Shown: piece by piece, positions 25,001-56,147 of the stretch
Numbering within the stretch: the stretch's first letter is position 1
How the letters are laid out: every line of letters starts with the position of its first letter
From: Eledone cirrhosa
Lineage: Eukaryota
Length of the DNA stretch: 64,000 nt
Direction: 5' to 3'
NCBI GenBank assembly: GCA_964016885.1
Contig: OZ024742.1
Span: forward strand, 95,294,001-95,358,000
Made by a program: the position numbers and the translations under genes
The notes under the pieces: model-generated
What the model was told of the DNA's origin: nothing
The model's input: the letters and a program-made list of their open reading frames with translations, nothing else
Database searches by the model: none

Positions 25001-25331
25001 TTTGTGTAAATGTATATTTATAAGCGTGCTAAGGCATGTGTTGATGAGTATGTATAAGCATAATAAAGTCCTTCCACTCACATTCTCCCTCTCTTCCCTT
25101 CTCCATTTTCTCTGACACACACACATACATGCACTTAAATGTATAATCACTTAGGTATGTACTTGTTATAAATATTTGAATCAATTATTACCATCAAAAC
25201 AAATTCACTGTGATTTATGAAAAATGAATATAAACAGAAAATATAAAATATGTATCAAAAAAGCTATTAATATGTTATAAACAGAACAGAAGCCATTCAA
25301 GTAAATGATAATAATAACAATAATAATAAAT

Positions 25332-26023
25332 AATTTACCACATTATGAGAAGTGGTATGAGCATAAGCCAGAGTCGGTGATAGAAAACGCTCGAGTGAAG
25401 GCGCTATGGGATACAGACAGACAAGAGATTAGAACACAATAGGCCTGACCTGGTGGTTTTTGACAAGGAAAAAAGATTGTGTCTGAGTGTAGATGTAGCC
25501 TGCCCTTTTGACACAAGAGTGCAAGAAAAGGAGGAGAAAATTAACTAATACCAGGATTTAAAGCGGGAATTAAAAAGGATTTGGGACTGCCATGAGATCA
25601 AGGTCATCCCAATTGTCGTAGGGGTACTAGGTACTATCTCAAAGAGTGTTTAAGGATGGTTAATGAACATTTGTCCAGTCTCCTGTTTTGGAACATTTCA
25701 AAAAGTATGCTTGAACCATCTTGCAAGAACCAACTGATACGTCCAAAGTATCTGAGGCTTGATGTTCATTTGAATAAACTTTCCAGTTAAATAATTGTTT
25801 CTACTTTAGGCACAAGGCCAGCAAATACCCAGTGCATTACTGGTACTTTATTTTATCGACCCCGTAAGGATGAAAGGCAAAGTCAACCTCGGCGGGATTT
25901 GAACTCAGATAGTAAAGGGACGTAACTATGCTGGAATGCATGGCGTCTGACCCTCTACCGATACTGCCAATCCACCGCCCTTTCTTTCCAGTTAAATAAT
26001 ATTAATGACTGAGACTCCAAGAA
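25332..26023 (+). mobile_element. 5'-truncated R4/Dong LINE copy (RLE domain and 3' UTR), interrupted by a SINE
   Basis: Closely similar to 36870-37378 (gagaagtggtatgagcataagccagagtcggtgatagaaaacg...tgactgagactc); followed by (AAT)n. Confidence 0.85.
25796..25983 (-). mobile_element. Young SINE with 17-bp TSD
   Basis: TSD ctttccagttaaataat at 25779-25795 and 25984-26000; minus-strand tgagttcaaatcc resembles a B-box; near-identical to 41980-42156. Confidence 0.85.
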
Positions 26024-26072
<49 letters not shown>

Positions 26073-26314
26073 TTTTCTTTATTAACCACAAGGGTTTACA
26101 TAAAGTAGACATTAAGGACAGTACAGGACAATACAGGACGGTACAAACGGGCATTTCTGCGTGTAAAAAACAGAGGATGTAATAAAATAACAAAGAAAAA
26201 TTCCCCAATACGGGGGGAGACTTCCGAGGGACATTTGTGGAGAAAGCCCATTAAAAGACCACAGTGACCCTGACAACCAGGGCAAGTGCCCTCTCCCAGT
26301 TTTCCACCTTTAAT

Positions 26315-29300
26315 TCACAGACACATACTCAGAGAAGGCCCATTCATTCGGGCCATACTTGCTTCTCTCACCCATCTTTCAACAAAATGCTGGGAAGAGA
26401 GCACTTCCCTCTCTACCCTGATTTTCCTTTTCAAATGAAATTTGAAAAAGTTAATCAGGGCATCACCGAAGTGGTAAATGCTCGTCTTCAGCCCTTTCAA
26501 ACGTGTCCACCATACTATCTCTTTCGCCATGGCTACCAGACAGATAAAAACTGCCTGCCCTTCCCGGCTAAAGGAAGAGGGCGGGGCAATCCTCACGATG
26601 GACTCAGCTGATAGCTGGATCCGTCCTACACGTGACAGCAGGTGTTCGACATAAACCCACAAGTCAGCAATGCTCGGACACTGGACGAGTGCGTGCAGGA
26701 CGGTTTCGTCGCCCTGTGCGCATCTCAGACATGCCCGGCTGACGGCACCTCCATACTTAGAGAGTTTATCCGGAACTGGCAAAGCTCCCCGGTAGCACTG
26801 CCAGGCCAGGGATTTCTGGAAGTTATCCATAGGCCCCGGCCCGAAAGTCCTTCCGAAGAGATTGGCTAGTTGATTTTCGTTGACGCCTAGAGTTTCTCCA
26901 AGTACGTTGTCGCTCTTCCCCTCCACTAATCCCCTATAGAACGCCAAGGTGGAGTTTCCACCGATCACATTGCCCGAGACGAGCTGGGGAAAAACGTGTC
27001 TAGCAAACGGCGACCTCACCTGATCACCGTCGAGGAAGAGGTGGAGATGTCGTAGCCTGAGCGCGTGTCTGCGCATCATCAGCCACGGCATTCCCAGCCC
27101 TCCACGTAGCGGGTGTTGACAGCAGATGGACCGCCTGACCATCGGAACGCGTCCCTTCTACAAGAAGCGAAAGAGCAAACGCTCCAGCGCAGTCAGGCGG
27201 GGCTTAGGACAAGGTACGACGGTCAGGCGGTAGTAGATGACGGACGTGATGTACGCGTTAGCCACCTCCGCTCGACCTTTCAGGGATAGCTTCCTCTCGG
27301 CCCATTTCTGGGTGAGAGAAGCCACCCTGCTCGTCACCTAGTCCCAGTTTTTGTCCGTCTGGAGGTCTGGACCGAACCAGACCCCTAGCAATTTAACCGG
27401 TCCGTCCGTCCAGCGCCCGACGACGCTGTTGGACGGCATGGACCTGCCTCTCCAGGTGCCGAGCTGCAGGCCCAGTGACTTTTCCTGGTTGATCATTGCT
27501 CCTGTCACCGCTTCGTACTCTCTTAGTGTAGTGCCGATCGCCTCGATGTGTTTGGCGTTCGACACCACTACGGTGACATCGTCCGCATATGCTGACACGG
27601 ACTTCTGCATCCTAGTTCGCGCGGGACCCCCCTCAACGTCTCCAGTTTGTGCAGTAATGGCTCGAGAATTAATACGCACAATAGGGACGAGAGGGGACAT
27701 CCTTGGCGGACCTAGCGCATGATGTTGAACGGTTCCGAAAGGTGACCGTTCACTCTCACTACAGAGCAGATGTCGCTGTGCATGGCAGCGATCCAGCCTC
27801 TGAAGACGGGCCCAAAGCCAGCCGCCCTCAGGACTGCCGCTAGGTAACGATGGTCGACCCTATCGAAGGCTTTCGACTGATCTAAATTGATCAAAGACCC
27901 ACCCGTGCCAGGTTCCCAAGCTACCGTCTCTACGATGTATCGCATGAGGTGGAGGTTGTCGTGGATGGATCTGTCGGGAATGGCGCATGTCTGCGCCTCT
28001 CCCACCAGACCACCAACGACAAGCGCCAACCTCTTTGCTAGCACCTTGGCCAAAATCTTGAACTCTGTGTTTAGCAGAGTTATGGGCCTAAAATTATCTA
28101 TGTTATCCCCCTTGTTCGGATCCTTTCTCAGCAGCGCCACCTCTCCTCGGCTCACAGAGCTGGGAATTCTCCCGTTCTGTTGCCAGTTGCAGTAGACGTC
28201 CGCTAAGAGGCCTCCGAACAAGTCTGGAATTTGTACGTAAAGTTCATAGGGCAGACCATCCAAACCAGGCGATTTACCCCTTGTGCAGCCAATCATTGCC
28301 TCCCGTACTTCAGCGGTTGTTATCGGCTTTTCGCAACACTCCGCCTCAGTGGCCGAAAGCCGCGGCAGTCCGTCGAGGTAGACACTAAAGTCCATCCCTC
28401 GATCCGGCCCGCCACTGCCCCCGAACAGTTGAGCGAAGTGTCGCTGAAAAGCTCCACACGTTTGACCTGGATCGAGTAGCATGCGCCCGTCGTGGTCCAC
28501 CAAATACCGGATCGTGGCTTTGTTGCCACGACGCGCCTCCGCCACTCGGGCCCATTGAACGGCTTTCGTCCCCTCGTGTCTGAGAGCACGCACCCTAGCT
28601 CTGACAACACAGCGATCGTGCTTTGCATTGAAGAATTGGTCAAGGGCCAATTACGCCGCAAGCACGTCGGTCGCGATGCCTTTGCTAAGCGCCCCGTCTA
28701 ATTTTCTAACTAGTTCTCCCTTTGCTCTATTTTTCTCTATTGCTAAAGCCTTACTAAACCTGATGGATTCTATTCTAATCGCTCTTTTCAGAGCAAACCA
28801 CCACTTGTTGTTGACGATGGCCCCGTCAACGCCCGCTTAACTAGTTCGCTAATCCGGTGTCTGTAGGCCTTGCGCGCTGGTAAGGACGCGTTTAGCTTCC
28901 AGTAGCCGGGTCCTCGTCTATGAAGCCTATCTAAGTCAAGCACACAGATCACGAATTTGTGGTCCGTGTATCTGACTATCTTGAATTGTGGACAGCCTAT
29001 GCTAGACCTATCTATTTTCCTACAAAATACTCTATCTAGATATGATCTGGATGAACCTATGCGATTTGTCCAAGTCCACATTGGCACATTCGGGAAATCC
29101 AATCGGTAGCTGTCAGACAGTTCAAAACGCCTGAGCTGGTTGGTGAGGCTCTTGCACCCTCCACCCCTATCCGCTAATCCCAAACAGTCCCAGCGTGCAT
29201 CTAAGATCCCGTTCCAGTCGCCCACTAACACTAAAGAGCGAGACGTTCCAAGAATGTTCTCCAGACGCCGGAAGAAATCAGGCCACCCTGTCGGGGTATA

Positions 29301-29628
29301 GACGGCCACTAGCCTGAAAGCTTGCACGTCTATGCTGGTCACGTCCAGCACCAACTTACCCTCTGGGTCCAGGAAGATGGCCCGTTTGGCGAGATCCAAA
29401 CCTCTCCGAAAAAGCACAGCAACTCCTCCCACCGAGCCAGAAGGGCTGGGAGATGTGTACACATCTTAGCCGCCGAAAATCGGTGCGAAGGCCCGTGCTT
29501 CGGAGATTCTGGTCTCGCTGATGGCCACTACATCTATGTTTAGTGACCTGAGGTCCTTGAGCAGGTGGCCCTGCTTCCATCACGACCCCAAGCCACGCGC
29601 ATTTATGCTCCCTATTCTGAGTGAGGTC
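26315..29628 (-). pseudogene. Tx1/L1 ORF2: APE endonuclease, RT and C-terminal CCHC (disrupted)
   Basis: SINARGL..DVVAISET, LVGDWN, SYLDRVF, TDHK, GYWKLN; KSPGLDGL, FRPITLLNTEFKIL, LDQSKAFDRVDH, AYADDVT; CLRC..ETVLHALVQC. Confidence 0.93.
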
Positions 29629-29664
29629 TGTTTAAAATGGAGTGGAAAAGATGGGAAAGACCAC

Positions 29665-31335
29665 TTACCGTACTTTTCGTAGAGGAAGGATGGTTTCTCC
29701 ATCCCTTTTCTCTTGATCGTCTGGTGAAGGGACCGTTGAATCGTCCCTTCGGCTGGTCGTCGGCTCTTCTATGAGTATGTCCGAATATATTCTCCGGTTG
29801 AGAGTCCCTCCTACGTCTCTGAAATCACCAACTGCCTTGGGGAATTTCGTTTTAGTGTCTGTGTATTGTTTCTGTGTAATTCTTACCAGTCTTATGTTCG
29901 TTGGTGTTTTGATTGGTGCTGGTATTCGTGCTGTGAAATGTCTGTGTGTTCAATTATGTAAGTCATTAGTGGGTGGTGATTGTGTTGGTGGTGTTGGTGG
30001 TGCAGTAGCCTTTACCCTTTTTTCATTTCTTTCCTCCCTTTTCGAAGGTGACGATGCGCTGCTTCTGCGTTTGTGCCTTCTTGCGACCTTTTGCCATCCC
30101 TCTCCCACCTCACACTCCATGTCTGATTTTGTGAGGTCGGGGAGGGGTACCAGCTCCACTCTTTCACTTGTTGTTTGTGATGTTTGCAGTGGAGTCTCTG
30201 TTGGAGCTGCAGTTGGTATTACTGTTGTTGTTGTTAATACTTCCACTGCTACTACTGTTCTTGATTTCCGTGGCGTGGGTATGGGTGCCACGGACCTATC
30301 GTTCCTGGTTGCCGCTTGTCCTGTTGCTGGTAGCCGCGGAGCCGGTTTCGGAAGGAGGGGGGTTTTCTCCTTTCTCAGGGTCTTCTCGTTGCAGAAGGCC
30401 CTGAGGTGAGTCTTCGATCCACAGCGAAAGCATTTCGGGTGTTTGCCCTCAACACTTATGGGCAGTTGAGTGCCGTTATTGAAGTCTATCACATCCGGGA
30501 TAGCTTCGATGCACTCCTGGTTGGTTTGGATTAACATCTCAATGGAGGTGCCGACCCAATCTTCTCTTACTTTTTTCTGTACTTGCAGTACAGTTGTTTT
30601 GTCCTCGATTCCGACGAGGACAGACGCGGCCAGCCAAGAAGGGGCCATCCCGGGGGAGACGTGGGTCAGTTTGACCCTCACAATTTTTTGCCCGCAGTAG
30701 GAGGGCACCAACACCATTTCCTCGCTCCTTAGGGTCACTAAGGATTGAGCCTTTGCCTCCTGGGGTGTGGCAAAAAGTACGTCTACGGTGGCATATTTCT
30801 TGCCTCAGGTGATGTGCGTTTTCCGCTGCCACACAGACCCTAAAGCTTTTTGTATTTGAGCCTCTGTGGCTCTTTCAACCCTACGGAATTTTGTACTTAC
30901 TGTACGGTACGTGACCGTACAGTGATGTTGGGTTTCGAAAAAATTTTCCGCTGCCTTGCAAATTGCTCGGTGTCCAGTTTTTATCACCATCTTCTTCGCT
31001 TCCTCTAATTCCTCATTTGTTATGAGGATGGTTTCCAGGTTCTTTGCGATACCTGCAAACGAGATTGGTTTTTCTTTGCTGCTGTTGTTGTTGTTGTCGT
31101 CAGAGCTGCTGTTACTTTTGTTGTTGTTGCAGGTACTACGACTACTGCCGCCGCCGCCGCTGTTGCTGTGGTTGTTGTTGCTGCTGCTAATGCTGTTGTT
31201 GTTTATGCTGCTGCTGATGCTGTTGCGGCTGCAACTGTTGTTTTCATTGTCACTGTTGCTGTTGTTATTACGGCTGCTACTGCTATTATTCCTGACGTCA
31301 CGCGCATTTATGCTGCCTATTCTGAGTGAGGTCAT
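29665..31335 (-). pseudogene. ORF1b: Tx1 gag-like protein with CX2CX4HX4C knuckle
   Basis: Starts MTSLRIGSINAR plus an Asn/Ser linker; has CFRCGSKTHLRAFC; ends GETILPLRKVR* at 29665. Lesions seen: TGA at ~30805, a 1-nt frameshift at ~30775, TGA at 29950. Confidence 0.8.
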
Positions 31336-31369
31336 GTTGAAATGGAGTGGAAAAGATGGGAAAGACCAC

Positions 31370-33301
31370 TTACCTTACTTCTCGTAGAGGAAGGATGGTT
31401 TGCCCATCCTTTTCACTGCTTGTGGCCTCCTCCTGAAGGATGTCCTTATAAATCCTCCTGGAGAGTGTTTGCCGGAAGTCTCCGATGTCTTTGGGGAATT
31501 TTTGTTTTTAGTGTCGTGTACGTTTTCTGTGTGATGCGAGTGATTTGTATGTGTGGAGGTGGTGTGAACTTTTGGGTTGTTGTGTAGTCTTTTTCTGTGA
31601 TGCTGGTATTGTGTTGCATGTAGTGTAATAATTGGTTGTTGTTCAAATTTAATGCTGTGTTGTGTGTATCGTTTTGGTTGTTTTGTTTTGTTTGCGTTTG
31701 TTGTGGGTTTGTTTCTGTTTCGCTTTTTGGTGACTTTTGTGGTGTTGGTGATGGTGGTGTTTGTGATGATGGTGATGGTATTGGTGTTTGTGATGATGGG
31801 GTTGGTGATGCTGGTGTGGATGGTGGCATATCTGTCCTAACTTTTTTGTTTGATAGTTTATTTGTTTCCCTCTGTATTTTGTTTTTGGAGGGGGAGGGAA
31901 GAGAATTTTTTTCTTTGTTGGTTTCTTTTTTTCTTTTTTCCTGATACCGTTTCCCACTCCTCGCCGTCACAATCTGTCTCCAGTTGTGATAGGCCGGGGA
32001 GTTGAAAATCCTCCACAGGCGTTGGTTTTGGTTGTGGCGTGGTGGATGGTGTAGGCGCTGGTGCTAGTTCTGGCGCGTTGGGTGGTGGTGGCGTTGGTTT
32101 TGATACTGTTGTTGGGGTTGTTACTGTTACTATGCTTCTGCTGTTGCTGCTACAGTTGTTGCTGCCATCTCTGCTGCTGGTGGTGTTGATGGTTGAGTCA
32201 CTGGGGTGGGTAAGAGAGGTGGCCTCAACCTTTGAGCCTGAGGGCAGAAAGCCCTTAGGTGGGTTCCTTCACCACAAACGACACACCTAGGCCTTCTGCC
32301 CTCGACAATTACGGTGAGGTGGCTGCCATCAGTGAGGTATATTATCTCTGGTATCTCCTCAATGCTTTTTTGGTCCGCTTGGATCAGAAGCTCCATCCCA
32401 GATCCGGACCAGTTCTCCTGCTTTTCTTTCGCTATTTCGATTATCTTGGTGTTGGCTTCGATGCCGGCGAGGACGGCAGCCATTAGCGAGGGAATATGGA
32501 TGGCCGGTGGAACGTCGGTTACCCTGATCTTTACGAGTCTCTGGCCACAATAGCTTGGGACGAGTGTGAAGTCGTCACTTCTTAATGGGGCCATGGAGTG
32601 TTCTCTAGCTTCCTGTGGTGTTTCAAAGAACACGGCCACGGTTCCATATTTCTGCCCACGTCTGATGTGGTTTTTTTTGCCCACACATGTCCCAAAGCTT
32701 TTTGGATTTGGGACTCGGATGCCCGTTCCACTCGGCGCGATTTGATGTTAATTGTTCGATAAGACACGGTGCATATGCGCCGATGCTCCATTTTATTAGG
32801 TGAGTGTGTGGAGGGGGGGTTAGGCTGACCCTGTACCCATCTTTCTTTAACATTTGTTTGGCTTCATCTAATTCCTCCTGAGTTACCTGAAATGCTTCGC
32901 ACTGTTTTGCTACTCTGGCAAACCTCAGGGTGGTTTTCTTAATTTCATTGCTGTTGTTGTTATCGTTAGTTTTCGTTATTGTTAATTTTAGTTTCAGTTG
33001 TGGTGGTGGTGGCGTCAGTAGTGATCGGTGTGGAAGAGTTCATTTTGGTTGAATTCATTTCGATATCAAGAGTTAATTTATTCTTTTCTTTTGTTTCTGT
33101 TGTCGCTGTGGTGGTGGTGGGTGTGGCGGCTTTAACACCTGCAGTCATTGGTAATGGCTGGAAATGAATGTCTGTCTAAGACAAATTTAAAATATTGCTA
33201 CTGCTTATATTTTTAGTGTTGGCAAACGTAGTAATATTTACAATGGTGGTGTCGGTGTGGGGTGTTAGTTTGTGAGGAAGGTGTGATTCTGAGTCGTCCA
33301 T
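31370..33301 (-). pseudogene. ORF1a: Tx1 gag-like protein with CX2CX4HX4C knuckle
   Basis: Candidate ATG at 33301; RRVERASESQIQKALG, LVPSYCGQ, CVVCGEGTHLRAFC; ends GQTILPLREVR* at 31370; several stops and frameshifts. Confidence 0.8.
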
Positions 33302-33515
33302 GATTTTCCAAAGAAAAATCTTTGTTTGATAATTATAAAAGTTTAAATTTTGGGCTCAAGGCCCCAATCTTTTTGAGTTTCCTTTTCAGAAAACCATGTA
33401 TGTGCACTTATATACAGTTAACAATAAAAATGTTCCATAAATGGCAATTTTAAACAACTGAAAATAACAAATCTTTGCGGAGCTCACGATAGTAAGATTT
33501 ACTACGTAAGTCGCC

Positions 33516-33567
<52 letters not shown>

Positions 33568-33829: not shown

Positions 33830-36800
33830 TCGTCTACAGCATGATAGTGCAACACTAAAATGACCGGGGGTGATGAAATCACCGGTGGTTATGTAACCAT
33901 ACATTCACCAATCCTCGAGTGTTTAAATGTCGAACCTAAACAGTTCGAATAACGGTGAAGTGGAGACTGGAATGTCATGTGACAGACTCTAACCCAGCAG
34001 GTGCTCCCTGGCTCAGCAGCAGGGACCTGGCTGTCAACCAAATACTGCTGGTGTCGGAGGAAGAAGAAGAAGGAAAGGGACCAGAACCAACTGGACGAAA
34101 GAATTTAAAAGAACTGTTAGGCAATGTTACCGGAAGAGTAACCCCAAGGAGAAAGGCTATAGGAAACGGATGCATAACATCTGGAAAGAGATTGGTCTAT
34201 TTAAATTAGATGAACAAAAATTGGCCGGGCAGGCTCGGGTAATAAGAACTAATGGGTGGATCAGCGAGCTGGAACTGGAGGAACTGAGCAGAGAGATTAG
34301 GTTGGAAATGGAGAGTGGAGTATGCCAGGCAAACGAGCCAGTGGGAAATGAAGGGGGAGAGGTTGAGAGAACAGAGGAACTATCCGAAGCAGACGATGAT
34401 CTGAATGCTGAAATAAATAATACCTGGAACAAAGATACGGCTATTGAGGAAATGAATGCTGACGGGCTAGAACAAGATTTGGTTGATATCCTAAACTTAG
34501 TGGTAGATGAATTGAACAATGATAGTGGGAAACCTATGAACCTAAGATTTGTAGACAGGAAAATGTTAAAAGAAACAACAGCTAAGGTAAACAAAGTCAT
34601 CCCATACCTTGAGGCGAGGAGCCTTCACCAGTGCAACAATATCCTCAAAGCAACAGCAAATGCGGTGAGGAAATTACTTGGCATAAAAGCGAGAGGAAAC
34701 AACAAACAAGAAAGATCAGAACCTTGATGGAAAAACGACTGAATGGACAAATCAGGGAAATGAGAAATGACATTGGAAAGCTTGAGTCCCTACTGAATGG
34801 GACACTAAAAAACATAGACACTAAAAATAGACTGGAAATAAAGTACAAAACTAGGAGGAAAAAGCTAAATATTATCATAGAAGAACTGAACCAACGCATT
34901 GTAGCAAAGAGTGCAAAAATTACGCGATACGAGAGCAGAGTCAGTCAGTATAGACAGAACCACATGTTTGACAACAGCCTGAAGATGCTGTTTGTACAGC
35001 TTGAAGGGAAAGAAAGAGGCAACGACTAGATCCCTGAGGCAGAACAAACTAAGACATTCTGGAGAGGAATATGGGAGCAGGATGTTAAACATAATGACCA
35101 GGCAGTGTGGATTGAGACAGTACAAAATGGGATTAGTGAACAGGCACACCAACAAACTGATTTGAGTATCACAGTTGAAACTAACCAACTGGAAATCACC
35201 GGGTCTAGATTGTGTGCAGGGCTATTGGATTAAAAATATAACATCCCTCCACCCGAAACTGACAACAATGTTCAATGACTGATTGATGTCCGGTGAGGTA
35301 CCAGAGTGGTTGACAAAAGGTACCACAGTTCTGGTAATGAAAGACCGAATCAAGGGTAATGATGTTACCAACTATAGACCTATCACATGTCTGTCTGTAA
35401 TGTGGAAACTGTTGACAAGCATTATGGCTGAGGAAATCTACCATCACCTCCACACAAACAACTTGTTACCGGACGAACAGAAAGGATGCCGAAAGAAGTC
35501 CCGTGGTACAAAGGACCAGTTACTTATTGATAAGATGGTAATGAGGAATTGCAAGAGGAGACACACTGGTCTTGCCATGGGATGGATAGACTACAAAAAG
35601 GCATGTGACATGGTGCCTCATTCTTGGATCACCAAAATCCTAGAGATCTTCAAGGTGGCAGATAACATCAGACAGTTGTTGGGCAAAAGTATGAAGTCCT
35701 GGAAAACAGAGTTAACATCAGCTGGAGAATCGTTGGGAGGCGTGAAAATCAAGAGAGGTATCTTCCAGGGAGATAGTCTGTCCCCTCTGGTGTTTGTCCT
35801 TGCCCTAATGCCTCTGACTATTAAACTGCGAAAGGGAGAGCTTACCATCAATCACCTCATCTTCATGGACGATCTTAAGCTCTTCGGGAAGAATGAGAAG
35901 GAGTTGGATGTGCTTGTTGACACTGTCCGTATTTTCAGCAGTGATATATGTATGCAATTTGGTATTAGTAAGTGCGGAGTACTTGTGATGAAGAGGGCTA
36001 TATTGAGCAGAAGCAACGGAATCCAGGAACCAACAGGTGAGATGATGAAGGAAATTGACACTGAAGAAGGATACAAGTATTTGGATGTTCTGGAGGCTGT
36101 TAAGATCAAGAACAAAAAAATGAAGGAATTGATAAGTTCTGAATACATTCGGAGAGTAAGGAGCGTATTAAAGTCACATCTGAACAGTAGGAATGCCATA
36201 AGTGCAGTAAATTCCCGAGCTGTCTATTATTAGGTACAGTGCGGGAATTCTGAGATAGAATGTTGCTGAACAAAAAGAAATGGATAGGAAGACTAGGAAG
36301 CTATTGACTATCTACAACATGTTCCACAAGAGGAGTGATGTCGATAGACTCTACTTAAGGAGATCTGAAGGTGGAAGAGGTCTTATCAGCATAGAGGACT
36401 GTGTTCAGTTGGAGAAAAACAACCTACACAAATACGTGACTGATAGTAAGGAGCCAATGCTCAGAATTGTACTGAAGGAGAGTCAATAGACCAGGGCATG
36501 TCCAAGGAGGAAATAACAAGAAGGAGAAAGAGCAGCCTTCATGAAAAATCCCTTCATAATACCTTCTTTGAGAAAACCGAATTCAGAGATCCACAGACAT
36601 GGAACTGGTTGAAAAGAGGAGACCTTAAAAAGGCTACAGAAGGAATGCTAATGGCTGCGCAAGAGCAGGCCCTCAAAACGAAGTGGTTGAAACACCATAT
36701 TTACAAGGAGGAGGCTAGCCCACTGTGCAGGATCTGTGGAGAGAGAGAGAGGGGAGACTGTGGCTCACATTGTATCCGAGTGTAAACACCTAGCCCAGAC

Positions 36801-37379
36801 TCACTATAAGGGCTGGAGCCATGATGTGATGGGCAGGGTGATCCACTGGCATCTATGCAAAGTAAAAAATTTACCACATTCTGAGAAGTGGTATGAGCAT
36901 AAGCCAGAGTCGGTGATAGAAAACGATCAGGTGAAGGTGCTGTGGGATTTTAGGATACAGACGGACAAGAAACTGGAACACAATAGACCTGACCTGGTAG
37001 TTTTGGACAAGGAAAAAAGATCGTGCCTGATTGTGGATGTGGCCTTCCCATTCGACACAAGAGTGCAAGAGAAGGAGAGGGAGAAAATTAACCGATACCA
37101 GGACTTAAAGTGGGAGGTAAAAAGGATTTGGAACTGCCATGAAGTCAAAGTGGTCCCGATTGTCATAGGCGCACTAGGTACTATCTCAAAGAGCGTTTAA
37201 GGATGGTTAAAGAAAATTGGCCCCGTCACGCTTTTTGGAACGCTTCAAAAGGCATGCTTGCTGGGAACAGCAAGAACCCTCAGATAGGTCCTGAATATCT
37301 TAGGCTGCAGGTAGAGGCTTGGTATTCATTTCAACAAACTTTCCAGTTAACTTACATCAATGACTGAGACTCAAAGAAC

Positions 37380-37426
<47 letters not shown>
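33830..37426 (+). mobile_element. Near-full-length R4/Dong-clade RLE LINE (decayed) with (AAT)n tail
   Basis: N-terminal GYRKRMHNIW..EQKLAGQAR; RT motifs [35 protein letters not shown]; CCHC CRIC..ETVAHIVSEC; RLE RPDLV..IVDVAFP..EK..Y. The 5' boundary is approximate. Confidence 0.9.
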
Positions 37427-52539: not shown

Positions 52540-55500
52540 ATTATCTGTTTGTTGTTGTTGCTGTTGTTGTGGTGGTGATGGTGGTGTTGTGATTGTTGTG
52601 ATGTTATTGTGACAGTACTGATGTTGTTGACATGACAGTGTTATGGTGTTGATATTATGTTGTTTAGTGTTGTTGTTGTTGTTGTTGTGGTAGTGATGGC
52701 AATGTTGTGATGTTATTGTGATAGTACTGATGTTGTTGAAGTGACAATGTTGTGATGTTGCTGTTGTAGTGGTGGTGGTGCTAGTGTTGTTGTTGTTGTT
52801 GTGGTTGTTTAGTTGGATTTGCTGTTGTGGTGGTGCTGCTAGTTGTGGTGATAGTTGTGTAGTTAGCTGTGTTGTTGTGGTGGTGATGCTAGCTGTGGTG
52901 ATGGTTGTGTAGTTAGCTGTGTTGTTGTGGTGGTGATGCTAGCTGTGGTGATGGTTGTGTAGTTAGGTGTGTTGTTGTGGTGGTGCAGCTAGTGTTGTTG
53001 TGGTGATGGTTGTGTAGTTAGGTGTGTTGTTGTGGTGGTGCTGTTAGTGTTGTTGTGGTGATGGTTGTGTAGTTAGGTGTGCTGTTGTGGTGGTGGTTGT
53101 GTAGTTAGGTGTGTTGTTGTGGTGGTGGTTGTGTAGTTAGGTGTGTTGTTGTGGTGGTGGTTGTGTAGTTAGGTGTGTTGTTGTGGTGGTGCTGTTAGTG
53201 TTGTTGTGGTGATGGTTGTGTAGTTAGGTGTGCTGTTGTGGTGGTGGTTGTGTAGTTAGGTGTGTTGTTGTGGTGATGGTTGTGTAGTTAGGTGTGTTGT
53301 TGTGGTGGTGCTGTTAGTGTTGTTGTGGTGATGGTTGTGTAGTTAGGTGTGTTGTTGTGGTGGTGGTTGTGTAGTTAGGTGTGTTGTTGTGGGGGTGATG
53401 GTTGTGTAGTTAGGTGTGCTGTTGTGGTGATGGTTGTGTAGTTAGGTGTGTTGTTGTGGTGGTGGTTGTGTAGTTAGGTGTGTTGTTGTGGTGGTGCTGT
53501 TAGTGTTGTTGTGGTGATGGTTGTGTAGTTAGGTGTGCTGTTGTGGTGATGGTTGTGTAGTTAGCTGTGTTGTTGTGGTGGTGCTGCTAGTGTTGTTGTG
53601 GTGATGGTTGTGTAGTTAGCTATGTTGTTGTGGTGATGGTTGTGTAGTTAGGTGTGCTGTTGTGGTGGTGCTGCTAGTGTTGTTGTGGTGATGGTTGTGT
53701 AGTTAGGTGTGTTGTTGAGGTGATGGTTGTGTAGTTAGGTGTGCTGTTGTGGTGGTGGTGGTTGTGTAGTTAGCTGTGCTGTTGTGGTGGTGGTTGTGTA
53801 GTTAGGTGTGCTGTTGTGGAGTTAGGTGTGCTGTTGTGGTGGTGGTTGTGTAGTTAGGTGTGTTGTTGTGGTGATGGTTGTGTAGTTAGCTGTGTTGTTG
53901 TGGTGGTGCTGCTAGTGTTGTTGTGGTGGTGATGTTAGTGTTGTTGTGGTGATGGTTGTGTAGTTAGGTGTGCTGTTGTGGTGATGGTTGTGTAGTTAGG
54001 TGTGCTGTTGTGGTGATGGTTGTGTAGTTAGGTGTGGTGTTGTGGTGGTGCTGTTAGTGTTGTTGTGGTGATGGTTGTGTAGTTAGGCGTGCTGTTGTGG
54101 TGGTGGTTGTGTAGTTAGCTGTGTTGTTGTGTTGATGGTTGTGTAGTTAGGTGTGTTGTTGTGGTGGTGGTTGTGTAGTTAGGTGTGTTGTTGTGGTGAT
54201 GGTTGTAAAGTTAGGTGTGCTGTTGTGGTGGTGGTTGTGTAGTTAGCTGTGTTGTTGTGGTGATGGTTGCGTAGTTAGGTGTGTTGCTGTTGTGATGGTT
54301 GTGTAGTTAGGTGTGTTGTTGTGGTGGTGCTGTTAGAGTTGTTGTGGTGATGGTTGTGTAGTTAGGTGTGCTGTTGTGGTGGTGGTTGTGTAGTTAGGTG
54401 TGTTGTTGTGGTGATGGTTGTGTAGTTAGGTGTGTTGTTGTGGTGGTGCTGTTAGTCTTGTTGTGGTGATGGTTGTGTAGTTAGGTGTGTTGTTGTGGTG
54501 GTGATGGTTGTGTAGTTAGCTGTGTTGTTGTGGAGATGGTTGTGTAGTTAGGTGTGTTGTTGTGGTGGTGGTTGTGTAGTTAGGTGTGTTGTTGTGGTGG
54601 TGAGGGTTGTGTAGTTAGGTGTGCTGTTGTGGTGATGGTTGTGTAGTTAAGTGTGTTGTTGTGGTGGTGGTTGTGTAGTTAGGTGTGTTGTTGTGGTGGT
54701 GCTGTTAGTGTTGTTGTGGTGATGGTTGTGTAGTTAGGTGTGCTGTTGTGGTGATGGGTGTGTAGTTAGCTGTGTTGTTGTGGTGGTGCTGCTAGTGTTG
54801 TTGTGGTGATGGTTGTGTAGTTAGCTATGTTTTGTGGTGATGGTTGTGTAGTTAGGTGTGCTGTTGTGGTGGTGCTGCTAGTGTTGTTGTGGTGATGGTT
54901 GTGTAGTTAGGTGTGTTGTTGAGGTGATGGTTGTGAAGTTAGGTGTGCTGTTGTGGTGGTGGTGGTTGTGTAGTTAGCTGTGCTGTTGTGGTGGTGGTTG
55001 TGTAGTTAGGTGTGCTGTTGTGGTGGTGCTGCTAGTGTTGTTGTGGTGATCTTGTGTAGTTAGGTGTGCTGTTGTGGTGGTGGTTGTGTAGTTAGGTGTG
55101 TTGTTGTGGTGGTGGTTGTGTAGTTAGGTGTGCTGTTGTGGTGGTGTTGCTAGTGTTGTTGTGGTGATGGTTGTGTAGTTAGGTGTGCTGTTGTGGTGGT
55201 GGTTGTGTAGTTATCTGTGTTGTTGTGTAGTTAGGTGTGCCGTTGTGGTGGTGCAGGTAGTGGTTTTGTGGTGATGGTTGTGTAGTTAGGTGTGTTGTTG
55301 TTGTGGTGCTGCTAGTGTTGTTGTGGTGATGGTTGTGTAGTTATCTGTGTTGTTGTGTAGTTAGGTGTGCCGTTGTGGTGGTGCAGGTAGTGGTTTTGTG
55401 GTGATGGTTGTGTAGTTATCTGTGTTGTTGTGGTGTTGCTGCTAGTGTTGTTGTGGTGATGGTTGTGTAGTTATCTGTGTTGTTGTGGTGGTGGTTGTGT

Positions 55501-55800
55501 AGTTAGGTGTGCTGTTGTGGTGGTGCAGGTAGTGGTTTTGTGGTGATGGTTGTGTAGTTAGGTGTGCTGTTGTGGTGGTGCTGCTAGTGGTATTGTGGTG
55601 ATGGTTGTGTAGTTAGGTGTGCTGTTGTGGTGATGGTTGTGTAGTTAGCTGTGTTGTTGTCGTGGTGCTGCTAGTGGTGTTGTGGTGATGGTTGTGTAGA
55701 TGGTTTTGCTGTTGTGGTGGTACTGTTAGTGTTGTTATTGTTATAGTGGTGGTTGTGTAAATGGCTTTGCTATTACGGTGGTGCTGTTAGTGTTAATATT
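52540..55800. repeat. GT-rich minisatellite/satellite array (32- and ~53-bp units)
   Basis: The unit ggttgtgtagttaggtgtgttgttgtggtg(a/g)t, with an optional gctg(c/t)tagtgttgttgtggtg insert, is repeated for ~3 kb. Confidence 0.95.
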
Positions 55801-56147
55801 GTTATGTTGGTGCTGTTCTTGTGATTCTGTTCATGTTTTTGTTGTTATTGTTGTGTTGACATATGGTAATGATGTTGGAGGTAGTAATAGGCTATTTTAT
55901 AAATATTACAATACATCTGTGTTCATATTTGATCTGGTCCTATCACCCATTAGCTTTTGTGGTGGGTGTTTAATTTTTTTCCAATATTAATTCTAAAATA
56001 TACAAAAACATCCTCTTTTTACTTTCCTTCCATTGAATATCTTTTTTCACCTTACCATATGTGTGTGTGGTTGTGTACTTGTGTATATATATATATATAT
56101 ATATATGTGAGTGTATGTAAGTTTGTGTGTATATGCATATGTGTATG

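Follow-up and report, generated by a model that had tools for sequence, protein, structure and literature searches.

A dead LINE with two ORF1 genes in Eledone cirrhosa: a probable chimera of sister subfamilies

How did a single LINE come to carry two ORF1 genes ahead of one ORF2? The question is raised by an element in a 64,000-nt stretch of Eledone cirrhosa DNA (hereafter, the window), in which an initial annotation had seen either a stable tricistronic LINE or a snapshot of ORF1 replacement. We concluded that the element is almost certainly a one-off chimera, formed by DNA copying, by deletion within a tandem pair, or by RNA switching. The account that we favor, with somewhat better than even confidence, is that of a unique dead chimera of sister LINE subfamilies, in which ~2.3 kb was copied from a defective subfamily B copy 0.89 Mb away and rejoined by microhomology.

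Anatomy and lesions of the element

A single LINE was found on the minus strand, extending from 33515 to ~26072 with (TAA)n runs on both sides (Table 1). The two colinear ORF1 paralogs, ORF1a and ORF1b, were present on this strand with the motifs quoted in the initial annotation. Lesions were counted against intact natural copies. ORF1a contained nine frameshifting indels (some in low-complexity stretches and alignment-dependent) and one nonsense codon. ORF1b, which had been credited with about three lesions, contained additional frameshifting indels besides its nonsense codon and ~190-nt deletion. In ORF2, six nonsense codons and two internal frameshifts were counted, 93 nt were deleted and the ATG was lost. 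The element is dead, with all three ORFs broken.

Table 1. Features of the chimeric element and its flanks (positions in the window)
Feature	Position	Strand	Remarks
(TAA)n/(TTA)n microsatellite	33516–33565		Flank of 5′ end, target site
Subfamily A 5′ UTR	33302–33515	−	Reaches the 5′ end usual for A, the same as in four A copies
ORF1a (subfamily A)	31370–33301	−	Frameshifts and nonsense codon, relative to intact natural ORF1a in L180
A-type cassette	31299–31413	−	ORF1a end, stop at 31372–31370, 34-nt spacer, ORF2 codons 1–12, ATG at 31335
Non-homologous junction, unique	31299–31300	−	TG microhomology (2 nt); one match per pattern search in 3.0 Gb
ORF1b (subfamily B) remnant	29665–31298	−	First ~75–85 codons absent; nonsense codon at 30807; ~190-nt deletion at 29969/29970
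B-type cassette	29594–29708	−	ORF2 ATG lost, 1-nt loss at 29629/29628
Tract of ancestry common to L115	29018–31298	−	Private shared alleles span 30844–29018; 3′ limit falls between 29018 and 28768
ORF2, dead (APE endonuclease, reverse transcriptase, zf-RVT)	26315–29629	−	Domains taken from intact relative L182
3′ UTR	26072–26314	−	
(TAA)n microsatellite	26024–26071		At element 3′ end

The surroundings of the element are also repetitive. An unrelated LINE whose tail is (TAA)n, and which may be RTE-like, occupies 33860–37400 on the plus strand (RVT_1 in 35283–36230), and a 3′ fragment of it lies at 25327–26023 (plus strand); the chimera lies in the (TAA)n tail of this fragment. Nested insertion of a B element into an A element was considered and rejected, as no A remainder was found behind the tail and the sequence below 26024 is the 3′ end of the unrelated LINE, matching 36863–37378. 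A G/T-rich minisatellite of ~3 kb was noted at 52750–55810 (periods 55, 87 and 154; GC skew 0.9).

Parent subfamilies and the ORF1a/ORF1b junction

In the assembly, an L1-type LINE that targets (TTA)n is represented by two sister subfamilies, both abundant. Subfamily A consists of ORF1a and ORF2; subfamily B has its own 5′ UTR, ORF1b and ORF2. Comparison of forty longer copies showed that ORF2 and the 3′ end are common to both, and ORF2 was 95% identical between one A and one B copy. Natural intact ORF1a and ORF1b were 40% identical over 562 columns. The 5′ UTRs of A and B differ (copies L062–L101 and L149–L188). Intact natural ORFs were found for ORF1a (664 aa; L180:2333-4327), ORF1b (659 aa; L086:4165-6144) and ORF2 (1139 aa; L182:722-4141 and L087:701-4120), and none of the 81 scanned copies had both ORFs fully open. 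A TTA run lay immediately upstream of the 5′ end in 50/51 A-type copies and 27/30 B-type copies. Four B copies (L085, L090, L171, L172) carried an ORF2 lineage mostly seen in A copies; ORF2 lineages thus occur with either ORF1, indicating that exchange between A and B is recurrent. Each DNA search scored its best 40 candidates only, and distances are biased downward because copies resembling the window were chosen as samples. Elements are often arrayed head to tail in (TTA)n: of 81 element ends, 19 had the same family upstream and 16 a third family (69–78% identical, its 3′ end mostly ~200–320 nt short). Three near-identical copy pairs 4–8 kb apart (L014/L015, L029/L030, L155/L156) are probably local tandem duplications.

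The duplication of the cassette after each ORF1 was evident in the alignment, including its 34-nt spacer. The two copies were 91% identical, with 10 mismatches in 115 nt, and the seven mismatches named earlier fell in the first 103 nt. Translation likewise bore out that MTSLRIGSINAR, the first ORF2 peptide after ORF1a, runs in frame into an Asn/Ser tract. This tract had been read as a linker, but it is the N-terminal region of ORF1b proper: in ordinary B copies the ORF1b ATG lies 221–251 nt upstream of the junction and reads directly into it (seven copies; an eighth, L092, was left out as mis-located by motif). The second cassette had been taken for an initiation cassette, but its ATG is absent, with the loss of one nucleotide.

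At the junction the A and B parents overlap by TG only. A 27-nt junction pattern with up to two mismatches matched once in the 3.0-Gb assembly, at the window site, and a gapped pattern (5–35 nt gap) again returned this site and no other. With a junction-spanning query (best 40 of 3314 candidates scored), all 39 non-self matches ended at window position 31300. Alignments from the B side stopped at 31300 in 29/29 fetched loci, and upstream of this point at least 21 of the 29 shared one leader with its own 5′ UTR. From the A side (best 40 of 1878 candidates scored), 29/29 fetched loci ran from the cassette into normal ORF2, and two cassettes were found in none of the 81 other element copies fetched. 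The cassette is duplicated because both subfamilies possess it: A–B homology starts ~45 nt ahead of the ORF1 stop, so that joining an A front to a B back yields the cassette twice.

A genome search of the junction had been proposed in the initial annotation, which held that a junction confined to this locus, with other copies carrying ORF1a and ORF2 or ORF1b and ORF2, would refute a stable tricistronic LINE reusing one reinitiation signal twice. This is the result that was obtained, which rules out the tricistronic reading for this assembly. A tricistronic family could draw on the in-frame fusion after a normal ORF2 start signal, although such a frame arises by chance one time in three; given the unique junction, the lack of two-cassette copies, the three broken ORFs and the missing ORF2 ATG, we regard its probability as negligible.

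Source of the B-type tract

We identified a candidate donor in L115, a full-length B element that retains its 5′ UTR and lies on the same contig and strand (G000:C3:96.21 Mb). The ~190-nt deletion in ORF1b and the loss of the ORF2 ATG were both checked genome-wide, and each occurred twice, in the window and in L115; other B copies have the segment that is deleted. The chance of such a sharer within 1 Mb was about 2/2996. The two copies also had in common 15 rare substitutions, each present in at most one other sampled copy, between 30844 and 29018, and none below 29018; rarity here is relative to 29–98 copies per column. At B-subtype sites their mosaic pattern was identical (27/27), and the pattern was seen in 0/32 other B copies. 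Below ~28.8–29.0 kb, the ORF2 of the window element belongs to a different lineage, from which it differs by 2–3.5%, as against 5–7% from L115; ORF1a is carried by 27 of the 29 nearest relatives of its mid-ORF2. Across the tract the two copies differed by ~2.6%, with private changes of ~1.2% on each since their split. The rare-allele load of the window element was doubled in the core tract (31/1282) relative to the 3′ part of the same element (36/2938; Fisher p = 0.007), as expected if the source of the tract was an older copy, which suggests the line of L115 as donor. A segmental or allelic duplicate of L115 was rejected: the 30 kb around L115 gave repeat matches only, with no colinear flank, and because the two flanks are unrelated, this is no segmental duplication.

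These observations fit one-sided strand invasion, because a homologous in-register end, a microhomology end and a nameable donor in cis were all found. Under this account, a broken DNA end, or the end of a nascent cDNA, in an A-type element would have started copying. Its ORF2-side end would have invaded L115 through the common ORF2, placing the homologous end at ~28.8–29.0 kb, and synthesis may then have proceeded back through the cassette into ORF1b, beyond the point at which it could anneal to the A end. Microhomology would finally have joined the overshot end to the A half at its ORF2 codon 12. The host may have been a single A-type element or a head-to-tail pair, and the event could have taken place at insertion or afterwards as break repair; a cDNA that switched from RNA to nearby DNA would give an equal outcome at insertion time. 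That the donor is nearby in cis favors DNA-level copying over RNA switching. The suggestion of a snapshot of ORF1 replacement can be kept in part: recombination between ORF1 types stands, but a nearby dead genomic copy is a likelier source than an active RNA, and no ORF1 was replaced, the product being a dead end.

Several results count against one-sided copying. Between 31298 and 30300, in the kilobase adjoining the junction, there was a lone private shared allele, versus 14 in 30299–29018 (p = 0.003), and L115's own rare alleles were shared with the window at 1/15 versus 14/27 sites (p = 0.006); the tract may therefore not reach the junction. The frequency of window-only rare alleles did not differ significantly between the tract (26/2281) and the 3′ part (36/2938, p = 0.8), giving no sign that patch and host differ in age. 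The A subtype at 33515–32800 is also unlike the usual partner of its ORF2 lineage, differing by 10–13% from the A copies usual for that lineage, versus 5.5% from its nearest A relatives. The ORF2 lineage in question is also present in B copies (the four named above). The mismatch of A subtype and ORF2 lineage and the scarcity of private shared alleles near the junction would both be accounted for by an unlikely alternative, in which a head-to-tail A-(TTA)n-B pair later lost ~4 kb by deletion at the TG microhomology and, separately, underwent ordinary gene conversion with L115. Suitable pairs occur: by BLAST count, a 3′ end of the same family lay no more than 700 nt upstream in 19/81 5′ ends, and that of a diverged family in 16/81, and in L166 a B 5′ end stands behind a family 3′ end, beside an A copy. 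However, this history requires two rare events at one locus, and the window and L115 have one mosaic haplotype in common up to 31246, agreeing at 35/39 polymorphic sites between 31298 and 30300.

RNA template switching within one insertion, with reverse transcriptase moving from a first RNA to the RNA of the defective B copy and then to A RNA as far as its 5′ end, seemed to us distinctly unlikely. It would suit the ordinary (TTA)n that flanks the element on either side, the complete A 5′ end, the similar window-only divergence (about 1.1–1.4%) across well-sampled segments, and the 5′ UTR kept in L115. It would nevertheless need three templates, one of them from a dead copy, and does not predict a sole sharer at 0.89 Mb; we graded it lower because this proximity is left unexplained. 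An assembly artefact fusing two repeat copies appears very improbable. Our read check of the junction covered 4 of 21 runs and, with repeats skipped at 31150–31270, found no bridging piece among the 24 shown, the loose ends being normal A and B continuations. On the other hand, the overlap is of 2 nt only and the contig is 379 Mb long, and because private changes are present on both copies, the window tract is no mis-placed duplicate of L115.

One-sided copying from L115, if accepted, would provide a worked case of a recombined LINE tract with a nameable donor. We offer as a decidedly doubtful extension that the locus is an overshoot of an ORF1-swapping process, in which elements with a common ORF2 acquire ORF1s of 40% identity by DNA-level copying from genomic neighbors in cis, dead ones included. 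If this is true, the route by which ORF1 is replaced could be put to the test with the donor/product pairs recorded among this genome's young A, B and mosaic copies, which number in the thousands. A lone dead chimera matters little, and a new kind of element cannot be founded on one such copy. Of modest interest is the background: two subfamilies have amplified together, pairing one ORF2 with strongly dissimilar ORF1s, and ORF2 lineages have been exchanged by them.

Classification and comparison with known systems

The subfamilies have the hallmarks of L1 superfamily non-LTR retrotransposons: APE endonuclease, reverse transcriptase, a C-terminal zinc-binding region, and a separate ORF1 followed by a short spacer. 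The intact ORF2 of L182 matched PF03372, PF00078 and PF13966, and its best solved relative was human L1 ORF2p (E = 5e-51), with R2 behind it at 4e-20. Neither ORF1a nor ORF1b matched a Pfam family above the cut-off; MBD matches on both were under it and were disregarded, and the CCHC knuckle of the ORF1s was read from the sequence. A target-site preference, seen here for TTA, characterizes some Tx1 elements without being confined to them. Within the limited open-access literature searched, we found no LINE with two tandem ORF1s and no Tx1 ORF1 chimera. Gilbert et al. reportedly described chimeric L1 insertions in older cell-culture work.

Kibi and Koshi, as outlined in PMC4494074, are Tx1 elements that target (TC)n or (TTC)n microsatellites. 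The elements studied here resemble them in their L1-type ORF2 and microsatellite insertion; unlike them, they target (TTA)n. Reticulate ORF1 evolution is described for Jockey-group LINEs in the account of PMC4120745, where a variable ORF1 is likewise set on a constrained ORF2, but in another superfamily and over a deeper time scale. Replacement of the 5′ UTR is the case presented in PMC5381506.

Templated, SDSA-like chimeric L1 insertions, in which the growing cDNA quits its RNA and copies nearby genomic DNA, are summarized in bioRxiv 10.1101/2024.08.27.596794. Templates there typically measure <250 bp and lie no more than 15 bp from the site, whereas here ~2.3 kb would have come from 0.89 Mb. 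One-sided invasion in double-strand-break repair, with one homologous-recombination junction and one end-joining junction, is set out in PMC4762383 for transgene targeting in plants; at our locus it is deduced from sequence alone. The closest parallel to a swap of ORF1 is in mouse, where L1MdTf and L1MdGf are presented as recombinants whose ORF1 side and ORF2 come from different lineages, with breakpoints toward the 5′ end of ORF2 (Sookdeo et al. 2013, PMC3600994); the routes given there are DNA recombination, an RNA/DNA heteroduplex and strand switching. As in those families, recombination here joined two lineages with a breakpoint in early ORF2. The mouse events were in register and founded families, whereas the present one has one end out of register, two ORF1s that are merely 40% identical, and a single dead copy as its product.
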